A DNA stretch of 64,000 nucleotides from Parcubacteria group bacterium (GTDB lineage Bacteria; Patescibacteriota; Minisyncoccia; Moranbacterales; UBA11712), in NCBI GenBank assembly GCA_041659685.1, contig JBAZXV010000004.1, positions 70,355-134,354 on the forward strand, read 5' to 3'. The first letter of the stretch is position 1. Each line of letters starts with the position of its first letter. Both the position numbers and the translations under genes were made by a program. Below, in pieces: positions 4,392-33,046 of the stretch. The notes under the pieces are model-generated. The model did not search any database. It was given only the letters and a program-made list of their open reading frames with translations, and was not told the origin of the DNA.

Positions 4392-4943
4392 ATGCAAGTT
4401 TCAGCCAAGTTAAACAATTACAGAAAGTCGCCGAGAAAAGTCCGTCTTGTGGCAGGGATGCTTAAGGGGCTTTCGGTGAAAGATGCTCAGAATCAACTGA
4501 AGTTCACTATCAAGGGTTCGGCGCCGAGTTTTGAAAAATTACTGAAAAGCGCTGTTGCCAATGCCGAGAATAATTTTGGTTTGGATAAGGATAATTTATT
4601 TGTAAAGGATGTCATGGTGAACGAAGGCTCTAAGCTGAAAAGATGGCTGCCGAGAGCTCACGGACGGGCAAGTCTGATCCTGAAAAGAACAAGTTATATT
4701 GAAATTACGCTTGAGGAGATTGTTGAGGGAAAAGGGAGAAAAAAAGTAAAAAAGCAGGAAATAAAGGAAATAAAGGAAGCAACCGGCAAGCCGAAAAAAG
4801 AGAAGAAAGAGACAGAAGAGACAAAGGAAGAAAAAAAAGACATAGTAAAAGAAAGAGTTGACAAAGAATTCAGGGATGATAGAAAAAAAGCGGAAGAATC
4901 AAAGGGATTTTTAAAGAAAGTGTTTAGAAGAAAGAGTATGTAA
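4392..4943 (+). CDS. rplV: 50S ribosomal protein L22 with a ~70-aa KE-rich C-terminal extension
   Basis: L22 core (…RKVRLVAGMLKGLSVKDAQNQLKF…RAHGRASLILKRTSYIEITL), then EKKEIKE low-complexity sequence. Confidence 0.92.
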   Translation: MQVSAKLNNYRKSPRKVRLVAGMLKGLSVKDAQNQLKFTIKGSAPSFEKLLKSAVANAENNFGLDKDNLFVKDVMVNEGSKLKRWLPRAHGRASLILKRTSYIEITLEEIVEGKGRKKVKKQEIKEIKEATGKPKKEKKETEETKEEKKDIVKERVDKEFRDDRKKAEESKGFLKKVFRRKSM

Positions 4944-27053: not shown

Positions 27054-28298
27054 ATGTCGGACGTTGAAGAAGCAATTCAAAAAAGGTTGGATGATTTTCG
27101 TGTGTTAGCTAATCAGCTCTTCGACCTAACTAGGGGAGAGGCTTTTCACAAGGACGATATCCCCTGGCATGGACAGCTGAAGGTTGACAAAAAGGATGCT
27201 ACGCGTCTTTTAAAGACCCTTGCCGGAAACGTCCACGGTTTTCTGAAGCAACAGGGAGGGGAAAAACCCTGGGCATGGACTCTGGAGGCTAAAAAAATAA
27301 AAGAAAGGGGAAAAAGCTTTATTGATGAATGGCCGAAAAAACAGACGGTGGTCGAAGAGGCGGCGCCCGCAGCACCCGCCGGACCCGCCAGCGACCAGCC
27401 TGATGCAGCCGCAGATTCTCCGAGTCCGGAAGTAAAGCCGCAAGTGGATGGTCCCGTGGATTTAGTCGTTAGCGACCGCCTCGGTCCGATTGTCGGTCCT
27501 TTGAATCAACCGCCGGCACTGGATGATTTAGGCAAGCCGCTCCTGACGGCGCCGGAAACGGACCTCACAGCGAAAGCAGAGGCCGTGCCTGAGGCCATCG
27601 TATTCTCTGCGCCCACGCCGCTTCGGCCGCTGTTCTTGACTCCCGATGAAATACCGGTGTTTGAAATGCTGGAGGCAGCGCCTAACCTTCTGGGAATTGC
27701 CTGGTTTAATGAGATGGGTCTGGCGGGAGTGCGCCTTGACCTCTTTCTGGCCAAAATGCGCGATGTCGGCATCATGGCCAACGGGCCCGAAGGGAACGGC
27801 GAAGGGGAAAAAATAGTCTTCTCCAGCTTGGCTTACAGCCAGTATCAGGGGAACTATTTCAAGATCTCCACCTCGGTGGCCCTGGATAAGTTCAGGAACG
27901 ATCTTCAACAGCTGCTGGATGAGCAGGCAGTCCTGAAGGGGCAACTGAAGGATAAGGAAGCCGAAGCCAATCGGGCCACGGAAAAACTTAAGAGCATGAT
28001 TGGGGCTCTGGATGTTGCAAAGCTTGATGCCCGAGAAGCGCGGTGCAGGTTAGAAGAAGCTGAGACCTTGGAAAAGGAGGCTCTGGATCGGAAAAACGAT
28101 GCCGATCAGGAGCAGCAAATTGCAGAAGCGGCCCTGACTGCTATAGAAAAGGAGATAGCGGCGGCCGACCTGGAAAACCGCATTGCGGCATTCCAGGAGT
28201 TCGAGATGACGGCTGTGCAGTTGGATCAGCGCCACTCCGAGGCCTGCCATTATAGGTACTTAAACTATCTCATCAGCCCCGCGGGGAAGGAGGTCTGA
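27054..28298 (+). CDS. Hypothetical protein: globular N-terminal domain, Pro/Ala-rich linker, C-terminal coiled coil. Its GC content is anomalously high.
   Basis: 414-aa ORF with a strong SD and a TGA stop. It is ~60% GC against the ~40% background, with a clean hydrophilic heptad pattern at the C-terminus. Confidence 0.6.
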   Translation: MSDVEEAIQKRLDDFRVLANQLFDLTRGEAFHKDDIPWHGQLKVDKKDATRLLKTLAGNVHGFLKQQGGEKPWAWTLEAKKIKERGKSFIDEWPKKQTVVEEAAPAAPAGPASDQPDAAADSPSPEVKPQVDGPVDLVVSDRLGPIVGPLNQPPALDDLGKPLLTAPETDLTAKAEAVPEAIVFSAPTPLRPLFLTPDEIPVFEMLEAAPNLLGIAWFNEMGLAGVRLDLFLAKMRDVGIMANGPEGNGEGEKIVFSSLAYSQYQGNYFKISTSVALDKFRNDLQQLLDEQAVLKGQLKDKEAEANRATEKLKSMIGALDVAKLDAREARCRLEEAETLEKEALDRKNDADQEQQIAEAALTAIEKEIAAADLENRIAAFQEFEMTAVQLDQRHSEACHYRYLNYLISPAGKEV

Positions 28299-29982: not shown

Positions 29983-30501
29983 TCAGGCGGGAAGTGCCAA
30001 AACGCAAGCGCAGTCGGGGTGGGGCAATAAGATCGAGTTGGCATAATTAAGCAGATTCTCTGCTTTCGGGACCCTTAAGAGTTCTGACTCTGTTCTGACC
30101 AGCATTAATCTTCTGCCTTTAAATATAACGCTGGCTCCCTGATCATGATTTTCTGATTCGGGTTGCCAGCAGGCTGAAAAGAATATGCTTTTGCCTCCAT
30201 TTCGAGGGTAGTTAACCCAGTGGACAGGCAATTCGAAAGCATAGTCGAGCGCGGATTTTAAGAACAAGGACTTGTAATTCTTATTTCCGCAAACGACCGG
30301 GCCCTTATGCAGTTCGGCATGGCTTAATATAGCTCTGCCCAGTGCTGCTGCGGCCGTGAAATGATCAAGGCCGTTACCGACTTCCACCCAATAGATGCCT
30401 TTTCTTGTAGGATGGAATCCAAGATCTAGATACGGAATAATACTTTGTTGCGTCTGTGGCATGCTTGCCAACCTCCCGCTGTAAGGTTTTAAATGGTGCA
30501 T
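29983..30501 (-). CDS. Hypothetical protein (172 aa)
   Basis: ORF with GC slightly above background (~48%). It lies next to the tRNA cluster and no confident family call was possible. Confidence 0.35.
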   Translation of the reverse strand: MHHLKPYSGRLASMPQTQQSIIPYLDLGFHPTRKGIYWVEVGNGLDHFTAAAALGRAILSHAELHKGPVVCGNKNYKSLFLKSALDYAFELPVHWVNYPRNGGKSIFFSACWQPESENHDQGASVIFKGRRLMLVRTESELLRVPKAENLLNYANSILLPHPDCACVLALPA

Positions 30502-30618
30502 CCTTTTTGTTGATTAGCATTATGAACGATTGCTTGTTGTCAGTCAAACTTTGATTTTTCAATGATTACGTAATTATTGACAAATTAGTAAAAATCATAT
30601 ACTATTATTTTGTTTTAC

Positions 30619-30692
30619 AGCGGGGTAGAGCAGTCCGGTAGCTCGGGTGGCTCATAACCACCAGGTCGTGGGTTCAAATCCCACCCCCGCAA
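30619..30692 (+). tRNA. tRNA-Met (anticodon CAT) with an unpaired A1·A72
   Basis: Cloverleaf: acceptor GCGGGG/CCCCGC, U8, D-stem GAGC/GCTC, anticodon loop CTCATAA, T-loop TTCAAAT, discriminator A; no encoded CCA. Confidence 0.8.
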
Positions 30693-30797
30693 CAAGCGTC
30701 CGCAAATAATAACGAAGCACGAAAGTGCTAATGTTTTTATTTGATATAATTTAGAACCTCCTATACAATACTAAGCGAAAACATAACGGAGTGCTCT

Positions 30798-30908
30798 ATG
30801 GCTAAATCAAAAAAGAGAATAGAGGCGCGCAATCTAAGGAAAAAAGGCTTAAGTATAAGAGAAATTGCTGAAAAAATTGAAGTGTCCAAAAGCTCGGTAA
30901 GTATTTAG
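30798..30908 (+). CDS. Helix-turn-helix DNA-binding ORF (36 aa), ended by a TAG that is in frame with the downstream 171-aa ORF
   Basis: MAKSKKRIEARNLRKKGLSIREIAEKIEVSKSSVSI*. A TGATATAAT -10 element and a GGAG SD lie upstream. Confidence 0.4.
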   Translation: MAKSKKRIEARNLRKKGLSIREIAEKIEVSKSSVSI

Positions 30909-30959
30909 TGCGCAGATATTGAGTTAACGAAAGGACAGGCCGAAAAGCTTCACGAACAA

Positions 30960-31475
30960 ATGGTCAAGGGCGGATATTTGGGACGGCTCAAGGGCGCGCG
31001 TATTCAAAAAGAAAATAAGCGACGGAAGATAAGGTATTTTTCCGAAAGGGGAAAACGCGATATTAAGCAGATAAAAAAACGAGAGTTATTTATCGCCGGA
31101 CTCGCTTTATACTGGGGTGAAGGAAGTAAAAAAGATCCGAGAGTAAGGTTTTATAACTCCGATCCGGAGATTGTCAGGTTCATAATGAAATGGTTCAGAA
31201 ATATTTTGAATGTTGCGGAAGATAGATTTATAATGTATGTCACAATAAACAGGATTCACAATGATAGGCTGGATGATGTGAATAAATACTGGTCTGAAAA
31301 AACCAACATATCGATCGGGCAATTCAGAAAACCTATTCTCATAAAAGCAAAAAATGAAAAGATTTACGATAATCATTTTCAACACTACGGAACTCTGTGC
31401 GTAAGGATTGCAAAAAGTTCAAGTTTATTCTATCAAATCATGGGTTGGCTGGAGGCTCTTGGCAAAACGAAGTAA
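30960..31475 (+). CDS. Putative LAGLIDADG-type homing-endonuclease-like protein (single-motif, 171 aa)
   Basis: …ELFIAGLALYWGEGSKKDPRVRFYNSDPEIVRFIMKWF… resembles the LAGLIDADG helix plus β-hairpin/helix core, and the size matches I-CreI-like enzymes. It is in the same frame as the upstream HTH ORF. Confidence 0.4.
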   Translation: MVKGGYLGRLKGARIQKENKRRKIRYFSERGKRDIKQIKKRELFIAGLALYWGEGSKKDPRVRFYNSDPEIVRFIMKWFRNILNVAEDRFIMYVTINRIHNDRLDDVNKYWSEKTNISIGQFRKPILIKAKNEKIYDNHFQHYGTLCVRIAKSSSLFYQIMGWLEALGKTK

Positions 31476-31482
31476 AAATTTT

Positions 31483-31556
31483 GGCAGGGTAGCTCAGCCG
31501 GTTAGAGCGCGGGTATCATAAACCTGAGGTCGCGAGTTCGAGTCTCGCCCCTGCTA
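31483..31556 (+). tRNA. tRNA with anticodon CAT (second CAU tRNA: Ile2/lysidine-type or Met)
   Basis: Acceptor GGCAGGG/CCCTGCT (G1·U72), D-stem GCTC/GAGC, anticodon loop ATCATAA, T-loop TTCGAGT, discriminator A. Confidence 0.75.
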
Positions 31557-31581
31557 CAAATACAAAAATTGAAGAATGTGA

Positions 31582-31595
31582 GGCGTAGCTCAGTT
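31582..31595 (+). repeat. 14-nt duplicate of the tRNA-Asp 5' end (acceptor and D-arm fragment)
   Basis: GGCGTAGCTCAGTT is identical to nt 4-17 of the tRNA-Asp that starts 51 nt downstream; the sequences then diverge. Confidence 0.6.
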
Positions 31596-31645
31596 TCTAG
31601 TGTATTAGTAGGCAATCCATTTAAAATAACAAATTTATATAATTT

Positions 31646-31719
31646 GGGGGCGTAGCTCAGTTGGTTAGAGCGTCTGCCTGTCACGCAGAAGGTCGCCGGT
31701 TCGAGCCCGGTCGTCCCCG
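31646..31719 (+). tRNA. tRNA-Asp (anticodon GTC)
   Basis: Acceptor GGGGGCG/CGTCCCC, D-stem GCTC/GAGC, anticodon loop CTGTCAC, T-loop TTCGAGC, discriminator G. Confidence 0.85.
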
Positions 31720-31860
31720 CATCATTTTTGAGGCTTATTTATGGCCTCTTTTTTGATAGAGATAAGGAACTACGGACATTGTCTTTACAAAACGTCAGTG
31801 TCCTGCTAATTTTCCAGTATTCTTAAATACAAGGGTCAGCAGACCAAAGGGAGGAAAACT

Positions 31861-32367
31861 TTGCCAGTACTTACAAGTGAAATCCAAGGCGAACGGAAAA
31901 GGCTGAAGAAAAAGATCCAGCGTCAACGTCCTCAAAGTGACTTGCGCTGGTTCCATGGAGTTCTCCATGACTTTGGTCCTCGGAGAAGCGTGGGATCCGG
32001 TACTATCCACGGCTTCGGCACTTTGAGAGTTAGGACGAACCTTACCGAACCCCAGCCTCTTCCGGGTGTCAAGATGCTGCCGAAAGACGGAGGCACGACA
32101 CGTTTTTTCAGTGAGGTTAATCCGCCCAGATTCCACTATCCGCCGGCGGAGGAATTCCGCTCACGCGCCGCTTTTGTGATCAGGCAACCGGTGAAGATTC
32201 CAGTCAGTATCAGGTATGCCGACCTTCCACGGGCATTTGATCTTGATGGTGAGTGCTTTGATTGCCATCATTATCCCAACTACGCGCAGGAGCGCAATAC
32301 TATCGATCGCGGCCGCATGCAAGTCATCATTTGCAGCGCTTGCGGCAAGGCCCAGAGGCCTCGTTAA
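31861..32367 (+). CDS. Hypothetical GC-rich ORF with a C-terminal CxxC…CxxC zinc-ribbon-like motif
   Basis: 168-aa ORF of ~55% GC immediately 3' of tRNA-Asp (…CFDCHHYPNY…ICSACGKAQ…). Whether it is coding is uncertain. Confidence 0.3.
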   Translation: MPVLTSEIQGERKRLKKKIQRQRPQSDLRWFHGVLHDFGPRRSVGSGTIHGFGTLRVRTNLTEPQPLPGVKMLPKDGGTTRFFSEVNPPRFHYPPAEEFRSRAAFVIRQPVKIPVSIRYADLPRAFDLDGECFDCHHYPNYAQERNTIDRGRMQVIICSACGKAQRPR

Positions 32368-32616
32368 CAACGAGGTTAAGCATCAATAATTTTTGCGGGG
32401 GGACCGACGAAGTCGGTTCCCTCGCCCAGCAGTTTTGATTCCTACGATGGGATTTTTTTATTTCATCAACACTTTTATCTTATCAATAGTCATGGAAAGG
32501 CTCTCCCTGTTATTCAACATACTGGTCGAAAGCTGTTTCAAAAGTTTTCCTGCCGTATTTCACAATTTCCGTCAATAACAAAAGCACTCCAACGAGGAGT
32601 GCTTTTGTTATCCTTC

Positions 32617-32853
32617 CTACTTCTCCTCTTTTTCTTCCTTCATTTCTTCCGGCATTTTGTCGATCATATCTTTCATCTCCCGGATGAATGAAAGCTTGGC
32701 CTCAAGCATCTTTTCCTTCTTTCTGAGCATTGCCCCCATAAAATCCTTTTTCATCTTCTTCGGCCACTGATGCCCGTGACCCATGCATCCCATCCAGCCT
32801 TCTCCCGATTCCATCTCTTCGCCCTCTTCGCCGCTTTGATATTCTTTGTACAT
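32617..32853 (-). CDS. Small Met/His/Glu-rich hypothetical protein (~78 aa)
   Basis: MYKEYQSGEEGEEMESGEGWMGCMGHGHQWPKKMKKDFMGAM…EEMKEEKEEK. The ATG at 32853 is preferred over the longer ORF-track start. Confidence 0.35.
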   Translation of the reverse strand: MYKEYQSGEEGEEMESGEGWMGCMGHGHQWPKKMKKDFMGAMLRKKEKMLEAKLSFIREMKDMIDKMPEEMKEEKEEK

Positions 32854-32884
32854 AGTTTTAAAAAATATTATTAAAATCTTCGAC

Positions 32885-32908
32885 CTTTCGTAATTATGAT
32901 TACGAAAG
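32885..32908. promoter_or_regulatory. Perfect 10-bp inverted repeat CTTTCGTAAT-N4-ATTACGAAAG (operator-like)
   Basis: Lies in the divergent region between the small Met/His-rich gene (-) and rlmN (+). Confidence 0.4.
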
Positions 32909-32996
32909 AAAAAATTTTTTGTTTCAGAAAAATATTTCTTGAGAAATTGCCGGGTTGGTGATAGCATTACTCTGTTTGCAGATAAGGCGTGAACCC

Positions 32997-33019
32997 TTCC
33001 TAACATCTAATGTTAGGAA
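32997..33019. promoter_or_regulatory. Perfect 10-bp inverted repeat TTCCTAACAT-N3-ATGTTAGGAA (operator-like), ~30 nt upstream of rlmN
   Basis: Exact palindrome read from the sequence. Confidence 0.4.
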
Positions 33020-33046
33020 AACGCCAGAAGGCTAATAAAGAAAACA

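Follow-up and report, generated by a model that had tools for sequence, protein, structure and literature searches.

The 64,000-nucleotide stretch analysed here (the window, from contig JBAZXV010000004.1 of a Parcubacteria group bacterium) carries a conserved tRNA cluster in which a free-standing, selfish homing-endonuclease-type gene appears to be resident, a reading to which we assign a probability of about 0.6. The gene (30798..31475, + strand, 225 codons) lies between two tRNA(CAU) genes and is predicted to encode a helix-turn-helix (HTH)-LAGLIDADG protein; members of its family occupy the same place in other genomes of the Candidate Phyla Radiation (CPR), and remote relatives are found in or beside tRNA arrays on viral contigs. 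From these comparisons of sequence and context, we read the family as likely free-standing LAGLIDADG homing endonucleases specialised on tRNA clusters. The original prediction for this part of the window proposed either a decayed or mosaic integrated element or a homing-endonuclease landing site; the latter was largely right as to homing endonucleases, but chance arrival at a hotspot does not explain the gene, the same slot being occupied at 7/7 CPR loci.

The occupied CPR contexts comprise the window and the loci of P0008, P0025, P0034, P0115, P0116 and P0064 (n=7), and the seven further CPR homologs looked up for context, six of them with DNA available, are 45-75% identical among themselves. 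In each of these distinct contexts the order is tRNA(CAU), endonuclease gene, tRNA(CAU), tRNA-Asp, with varying flanking protein genes (hydrogenase, GatCA, gyrB, Na/Ca exchanger; glnA in the window). The empty state is represented by a single site (n=1), in L001 (PMJF01000067.1), a Candidatus Moraniibacteriota metagenome-assembled genome (MAG) that is the nearest species-level genome found (RlmN ~77-78% identical to that of the window; 78% by tblastn, 77.4% by global alignment) and that has the sole complete tRNA trio among 80 rlmN-anchored CPR genome loci; the endonuclease gene was found at 0/80 of these loci. L001 has the same tRNA trio without the gene, with 88 nt between tRNA-fMet and tRNA(CAU), versus the gene-bearing spacer of 789 nt in the window; this short spacer contains a terminator-like hairpin and a promoter (TTGATT, 17 nt, TAAAAT) 10 nt before tRNA(CAU). 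The presence/absence polymorphism that had been anticipated for the endonuclease spacer was thus observed among the relatives compared, the gene being present at this one slot in the window and L099 and absent from L001. Two open reading frames (ORFs) of the window match NCBI proteins exactly, WC831_03735 and WC831_03745, both from a 'Parcubacteria group bacterium' MAG. Exact-sequence searches with the window RlmN and with P0002 gave no match.

That three tRNA genes lie within 1.1 kb, as originally proposed, is supported concordantly by ARAGORN and Rfam, all three being on the + strand, and the cluster is conserved across the eight related CPR loci compared. The A1xA72 mismatch and the A11:U24 pair are marks of bacterial initiator tRNAs; both are present in the first tRNA(CAU) (30619..30693; Rfam 62 bits; A/A as the non-standard 1:72 pair, A11:U24 being taken from the sequence), which is therefore treated as initiator-type (tRNA-fMet) and is presumably near-identical to Escherichia coli tRNA-fMet. 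All 75 of its nucleotides are identical in L001 and L099. A promoter-like site on the + strand (TTGACA, 17 nt, TACTAT; 30577..30605; 10/12 matches in a consensus scan) lies 13 nt upstream and may serve it, and a terminator-like hairpin with a T-run follows on its 3' side (30716..30739, +), with equivalents in L099 and L103 and one readable in L001. The elongator-type tRNA(CAU) (31483..31557; Met or Ile2) starts 7 nt past the endonuclease ORF stop codon and is followed by tRNA-Asp(GTC) (31646..31720; Rfam 70 bits), which is 100% identical to the L001 tRNA-Asp, and by the tRNA operon terminator (31730..31757, +), just past the T-run of which synteny with L001 stops. In this arrangement tRNA-fMet would be transcribed with its own promoter and terminator, and a second promoter would drive tRNA(CAU) and tRNA-Asp. 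The 3' CCA is encoded by 0/3 window tRNA genes (ends at 30693, 31557 and 31720) and is encoded at L101, L106 and L108. Pairs of CAU tRNAs with no intervening gene were seen in two Gracilibacteria genomes: in L068 (20628-20780) both share a strand with 1 nt between them, and in L062 (17748-17942) they are convergent and 43 nt apart.

The endonuclease gene abuts the second tRNA. At 3/7 CPR loci the ORF stops 7-16 nt before the tRNA, and at 4/7 its stop codon is the tRNA's own U8-A9-G10, so that the two overlap by 10-12 nt. The ORF is seen to finish at the UAG of tRNA positions 8-10 in L103 4669-4678, L106 3181-3190, L108 3170-3181 and L109 3169-3178, and also in the viral L111 (2163-2172). RNase P cleavage at the 5' end of the tRNA would remove the stop codon from an overlapping endonuclease mRNA, and the overlap raises the question of how RNase P processing and translation termination relate to one another.

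Because the divergence of the endonuclease tracks that of host genes, residence in CPR appears to be long. In a comparison of pairwise identities for three pairs, the window and L099 are 78% identical in RlmN and 73% in the endonuclease, L101 and L108 are 52% identical in GatA and 51% in the endonuclease, and L099 and L103 are 75% identical in the hydrogenase and 61% in the endonuclease. The gene therefore has the look of a long-standing resident, its divergence keeping pace with that of the host or running slightly ahead. Within CPR we envisage long vertical inheritance with occasional loss, as in L001, or inactivation, as in the window; the gene would thus have been lost or broken in 2/3 lineages that are about equally related (~77% in RlmN).

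The LAGLIDADG-like ORF of the original prediction is real and free-standing, lying in the intergenic region between two intact tRNAs, but it is longer than had been supposed. The 171-aa ORF at 30960-31475 is the C-terminal part only, and translation upstream of it gives one frame over 30798-31475 whose sole break is an in-frame TAG at 30906-30908 (W37 to stop), a position at which Trp is present in 54/54 aligned homologs. A code in which TAG is read through was ruled out, since all three stop codons terminate long ORFs in the window, TAG doing so in 12/38. As TAG is a normal stop here and the Trp is invariant in the 54 homologs, the window copy is, in all likelihood, a one-mutation pseudogene that arose via a TGG-to-TAG change; at best it is a split gene, the C-terminal part of which could restart at the near-invariant Met55. 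For annotation, it would be better called a pseudogene of a 225-aa protein than a 171-aa hypothetical protein.

More than 320 homolog clusters were found, each of ~225 aa and nearly all from CPR metagenomes. The LAGLIDADG-type motif is GLALYWGEG, with Glu108 invariant in 54 sequences, and a PDB search with the family profile gave I-DmoI (E = 0.002), with the invariant G-E-G aligned with the A-E-G of I-DmoI (GLYVAEGDK). The AlphaFold2 model (predicted local distance difference test score 92) has the alpha-beta-beta-alpha-beta-beta-alpha core fold. The structural scores being modest, we conclude that the protein likely consists of an N-terminal HTH and a single C-terminal LAGLIDADG domain; with a single such domain, it probably acts as a homodimer. 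Pfam LAGLIDADG models gave no match to the protein at E <= 0.1, and precomputed Pfam, NCBIfam and PHROGs assignments cover only the N-terminal HTH part of the endonuclease-like proteins. Models of group I or II introns had no match anywhere in the window. Site-specific cleavage by family members is predicted. Many family members are on contigs just 0.9-1.3 kb long, as would possibly be expected if the conserved flanking tRNAs break metagenome assemblies.

A scan of IMG/VR with the family alignment gave 17 remote relatives (25-43% identity by tblastn; profile E 1e-13 to 1e-43) on contigs 25-497 kb in length, the viral status of which is adopted from that collection. They are full length or nearly so, save one truncated copy (L125), and 17/17 retain the HTH and either GLYWGEG or GLYMGDG. 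All 17 are inside or beside tRNA arrays. For at least 11, a tRNA lies within ~80 nt of an ORF end, and several run up to the following tRNA or into it (L111, a 10-nt overlap); the greatest ORF-tRNA distance, 930 nt, is beside the truncated copy L125. At several viral loci the adjacent tRNAs lie on the strand opposite to the endonuclease gene, which argues that the association is at the DNA level and that co-transcription alone is insufficient to account for it. At the superfamily level the gene is shared between CPR chromosomes and viral tRNA arrays; neither the CPR member nor two viral members searched had a relative in 50,697 GenBank phage records. One viral contig, L127 (1-20672; IMGVR_UViG_3300033388_006651), has 18 tRNAs in 20 kb, an HNH endonuclease gene ending 17 nt from tRNA-Lys and two further LAGLIDADG ORFs (phrog_11023), and is a tRNA region crowded with homing-endonuclease genes from several families.

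With respect to expression, the promoter that had been proposed for the endonuclease ORF, TGATATAAT, is present at 30742-30750, but the homologous loci fit a TTGATA (30741)/TACAAT (to 30769) promoter better. This site (30741..30769, +; 17-nt spacing), identified by a consensus scan and from homologous loci, is the candidate promoter of a unit comprising the endonuclease gene, tRNA(CAU) and tRNA-Asp, and a matching -35/-10 geometry is present at the gene-bearing loci L099, L101, L103 and L108. In the window TACAAT is followed by a 28-nt leader, the 678-nt ORF, 7 nt and tRNA(CAU); as the -35 position is as in L001, the endonuclease gene is placed in the leader of the tRNA(CAU) and tRNA-Asp unit. 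A hairpin (30752..30798, +) has its 5' arm between the -35 and -10, the -10 in its loop and its 3' arm over the ribosome-binding site up to the A of the ATG. This architecture is present in the minimum free energy or centroid fold at 7/7 CPR loci, with a 5' arm segment of the form GAAC..., and the arm sequences vary by locus yet remain complementary: the mean duplex energy is -11.2 kcal/mol for a locus's own arms versus -6.5 kcal/mol with arms swapped, and only 6/5040 arm permutations reach the own-arm duplex energy. The co-variation of the arms is suggestive, not proof. Read-through transcripts from tRNA-fMet would have a masked ribosome-binding site and those from the internal promoter an unmasked one, such that endonuclease expression may be restrained by the hairpin, with the gene's own -10 in its loop.

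The proposed mechanism is one of intronless homing, in which the enzyme would cut alleles lacking the gene where the leader meets the 5' end of the tRNA; repair, with the near-invariant flanking tRNA genes as homology arms, would then copy the gene in, and the insertion would split the target and render occupied alleles immune. A wider and tentative proposal, which in our estimation falls slightly short of an even chance, is that the HTH-LAGLIDADG proteins constitute an undescribed superfamily of free-standing homing endonucleases with a tRNA-array niche in large uncultivated phages and CPR, one CPR clade of which has settled in the tRNA(CAU)/tRNA-Asp leader, borrowing U8-A9-G10 as its stop and being quieted by the hairpin that masks its ribosome-binding site; the tRNA genes would then serve as target, as homology arms and as the site at which processing would end the mRNA. 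Several points weigh against the reading of a resident homing-endonuclease-type gene. Membership of the family in the homing endonucleases is a prediction, cleavage and target site being known for no member, and distances within CPR look vertical, whereas active homing would be expected to give an incongruent pattern. There is just one empty site (L001) to examine, and the TAG of the window copy might stem from misassembly or represent a minority variant. The hairpin test is on seven related sequences in few sequence types, such that kinship inflates its significance, and the hairpin of the window is the weakest (-6.1 kcal/mol, z = 0.17). The one viral contig checked (20 kb) yielded further endonuclease genes and no structural phage genes.

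Turning to the rest of the locus, the 14-nt duplicate of the tRNA-Asp 5' end that had been noted is an exact repeat, GGCGTAGCTCAGTT, present on the + strand at 31582-31595 and, in tRNA-Asp, at 31649-31662; 50 nt separate the copy from the intact gene, and no such repeat is expected by chance (100 shuffles). The upstream context in the window, caaatacaaaaattgaagaatgtgaGGCGTAGCTCAGTT, aligns with the short spacer and tRNA-Asp start of L001, which indicates that the fragment is the original 5' end and that ~50 nt separate it from a complete tRNA-Asp. In the distant, occupied L101 (about 4845-4925) a longer truncated tRNA-Asp 5' half is at the same place; it carries a GC-rich, palindromic insertion of 16 nt and has lost 4 nt at the anticodon, with an AT-rich palindrome before it and, as in the window, a ATTTAAAATA-type leader and then intact tRNA-Asp after it. 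The simplest reading is an old tandem pair of tRNA-Asp genes, of which the fragment is the first copy, now in decay, although the fragment may alternatively be a scar of break repair. A relic of a group I intron in tRNA-Asp, an idea taken from PMC13011429, was rejected, given that no intron model matched and that the insert is just 50 nt.

Downstream of the tRNA operon terminator, a self-contained transcription unit (31776..32470, +) consists of a promoter-like site (TTTACA, 17 nt, TAATTT), a leader hairpin, GGAGG, an ORF and a 3' hairpin (32395-32425). The ORF (31861-32367, +) has a TTG start, with GGAGG 6 nt before it, and encodes a 168-aa zinc-ribbon protein. Relative to the window mean of 43.2% (sd 4.2 across 500-nt windows), its GC content is high, as originally pointed out (53.5%, z = 2.4), but the excess lies in codon positions 1 and 2, i.e. 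in amino-acid content, with third positions that look native (GC3 0.55 versus 0.53 for rlmN). The module recurs on L081, an unrelated 1-kb contig, at 77% identity across a 1.1-kb alignment that spans the promoter-like site, leader hairpin, GGAGG, conserved TTG, ORF and strong 3' hairpin and stops at ~32470; the L081 protein, P0001, is 66% identical. No common flanking gene remnant between window 32470-32616 and L081 was found by tblastn. A profile search of 1.84 billion cluster representatives gave 41 small distant relatives, which share DGECxxCxxYPN...CxxCG..MRP and often an N-terminal ERKKxKK...RWFGG; the family is thus a rare one. The model of the protein shows a helix and a hairpin besides a C-terminal zinc ribbon, and an informative structural neighbour for it was not found. 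We would guess that it is a nucleic-acid-binding accessory protein. A degenerate DNA pattern gave 15 metagenome matches, including 8 family members, one of which (L092) is a fragment of the window's own gene. The single viral zinc-ribbon match (L083) was dismissed as a chance match inside a tail-fibre-like ORF. A defence-type variable island lies 3' of tRNA-Asp on L088 (3673-7200; Ga0172379_10015649), a second CPR contig of the same sample: DpnI comes first, then a small ORF, then an AIPR abortive-infection protein and finally, 3 kb downstream of tRNA-Asp, a zinc-ribbon homolog.

The variability that had been suspected beyond tRNA-Asp is real, the stretch from the terminator to rlmN differing in 4/4 relatives examined: the window has the zinc-ribbon gene and a gene for a small acidic protein, L099 has DUF3850, the P0007 contig has NUDIX and L001 has 8 kb of unknown genes. 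The small acidic protein gene (32617..33006, - strand), beside which a hairpin search located a bidirectional terminator hairpin (32575-32611), has a 40% identical homolog at L001 7173-7466 (-), within this 8-kb insert. The idea that the insert is a defence island was discarded, Pfam and PADLOC searches being without matches. On the other side, the variable slot from glnA to tRNA-fMet holds a 172-aa ORFan (29983..30501, -; NCBI tag WC831_03735), which matches only itself among 5.8 billion proteins and belongs to no Pfam, NCBIfam, PHROG or PADLOC family; the L001 slot has two ORFs, which neither blastn nor tblastn ties to the ORFan. A GC elevation had been attributed to this ORF, but at 47.4% (z = 1.0) it is judged no more elevated than glnA (45.4%) or rlmN (44.9%), and its proposed role as a hotspot feature was not upheld: it is an ORFan with unremarkable GC. 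Both slots flanking the tRNA cluster are ordinary variable regions with small lineage-specific genes. The strongest GC anomaly of the window lies elsewhere, in a 414-aa ORF (27054-28298, +) with 54% GC overall and up to 64% in 300-nt windows; it has an Ala/Pro/Asp-rich low-complexity middle and a coiled-coil-like C terminus, with no Pfam or NCBIfam family and no counterpart in L001.

The alternative that the tRNA genes carry the decayed remnant of an integrated element (genomic island or prophage), with the tRNA-Asp fragment as an att scar and the GC-rich ORF as cargo, accounts for the different content 3' of tRNA-Asp in all relatives, for the break right after the tRNA-Asp terminator, for the presence of a partial tRNA-Asp duplicate, for the defence-type genes and zinc-ribbon homolog beyond the tRNA-Asp of L088, and for the recurrence of the zinc-ribbon module in another context at L081. 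We consider it improbable. Pfam and NCBIfam scans of the ORFs from 25.9 to 35.3 kb gave no match to an integrase, recombinase or transposase, and a repeat search revealed no tRNA 3'-end duplicate, the only tRNA-derived repeat being the 5' 14-mer. This is not the usual att site because it is a 5' piece located upstream, where a 3' piece marking the distal end of an insert would be expected, and the similar truncated half with the same leader in the distant L101 implies that it is old. The 700-nt zinc-ribbon module has neither terminal repeats nor a target duplication, its GC3 is native-like with the GC shift in codon positions 1 and 2, and the adjoining small acidic gene is common to the window and L001; on such grounds the claim of a decayed or mosaic element is not supported. 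Like tRNA-targeting integrative elements, the locus shows a partial tRNA duplicate, and its gene content varies immediately 3' of a tRNA; unlike them, it lacks an integrase and a 3'-end att repeat, its duplicate is 5' and upstream, and its inserts are single small genes. Far less credible still is a structured non-coding RNA in place of a protein gene in the GC-rich stretch (31760-32450). Some large non-coding RNAs adjoin tRNA genes, as this stretch does, its + strand folds better than shuffles (z = -4.1), and the predicted protein is odd in being Arg-rich. Nevertheless, only tRNA families were detected with Rfam, none covering the stretch at the gathering threshold or even at E <= 10, and a GGAGG stands 6 nt ahead of a TTG that is conserved. 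The 41 distant homologs keep an invariant CxxC...CxxC, and the ORF differs from L081 by indels of 42 and 6 nt, both multiples of three, with differences at codon positions 1/2/3 of 28/19/53; the indels and the third-position excess identify the stretch as a protein gene.

A more serious competitor, which we nonetheless regard as unlikely, is that the HTH-LAGLIDADG protein is a domesticated, WhiA-like DNA-binding regulator, kept to control or protect the tRNA(CAU)/tRNA-Asp operon. Its uniform length of ~225 aa across >320 clusters, a divergence that tracks host housekeeping genes in the three pairs, the conservation of slot and expression signals, and the resemblance of its HTH to resolvase-/transposase-type DNA binders are all consistent with such a role. 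WhiA has lost the acidic residue at the LAGLIDADG catalytic position; the Glu/Asp at that position is, by contrast, invariant in the 54 CPR members and kept in 17/17 viral relatives. The gene is also dispensable, being absent from L001 and broken in the window, and the remote viral relatives lie among many different tRNAs, some on the opposite strand, for which a DNA-targeting mobile gene is a better fit. We therefore prefer a selfish, homing-endonuclease-type gene resident in a conserved tRNA cluster.

The family is of the LAGLIDADG type, is missed by curated libraries and has a tRNA-cluster habit in 7/7 CPR and 17/17 viral contexts. If active, its members would be compact nucleases, probably homodimers, that target tRNA genes of high conservation or the DNA next to them, which would bear on phage-phage exchange of tRNA arrays, on the search for long-target nucleases and on why contigs of the family are often only ~1 kb.

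Comparison with known systems brings out what is shared and what is distinct. I-CreI, I-CeuI, I-DmoI and I-Tsp061I (single-motif or two-domain LAGLIDADG proteins) are intron- or intein-encoded, whereas the present gene is intergenic, and its predicted product, unlike theirs, has an extra N-terminal HTH attached via a long helix and is missed by Pfam LAGLIDADG models. WhiA (DUF199), described as a domesticated LAGLIDADG protein (PMC3984707), shares the LAGLIDADG scaffold and is a transcription factor with two degenerate LAGLIDADG domains and a C-terminal HTH; the present family, in contrast, has one domain that keeps the acidic residue, an N-terminal HTH, and is dispensable in close relatives. 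The CPR hairpin is like that of T4 I-TevI and late genes in that its loop contains the -10, its 5' arm lies upstream of this element and its 3' arm extends over the ribosome-binding site and start codon. In those T4 genes a hairpin hides the ribosome-binding site in read-through transcripts, with an internal promoter inside the hairpin. Unlike the T4 late genes, the CPR promoter is sigma-70-like, not phage late, and the hairpin, described computationally at 7 loci, is weak in the window copy. The comparison with the T4 tRNA cluster made in the original prediction is apt: SegB is encoded by a free-standing endonuclease gene in a phage tRNA cluster and brings about preferential inheritance of the tRNA region (PMC2330249), and the intronless homing pathway has been reviewed (PMC3984707). 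The CPR gene is likewise free-standing between tRNA genes and present or absent among relatives, and preferential tRNA-region inheritance would be the expected outcome; unlike segB, the CPR family keeps to a single slot over deep divergence, lies against or overlaps the tRNA that follows and is known here from sequence alone. Free-standing homing endonuclease genes in the tRNA clusters of T-even and T5-like phages are of the GIY-YIG or HNH type, and T4 SegB is a GIY-YIG enzyme, whereas the family described here appears to combine an HTH with LAGLIDADG and is found both in CPR chromosomes and on viral contigs.

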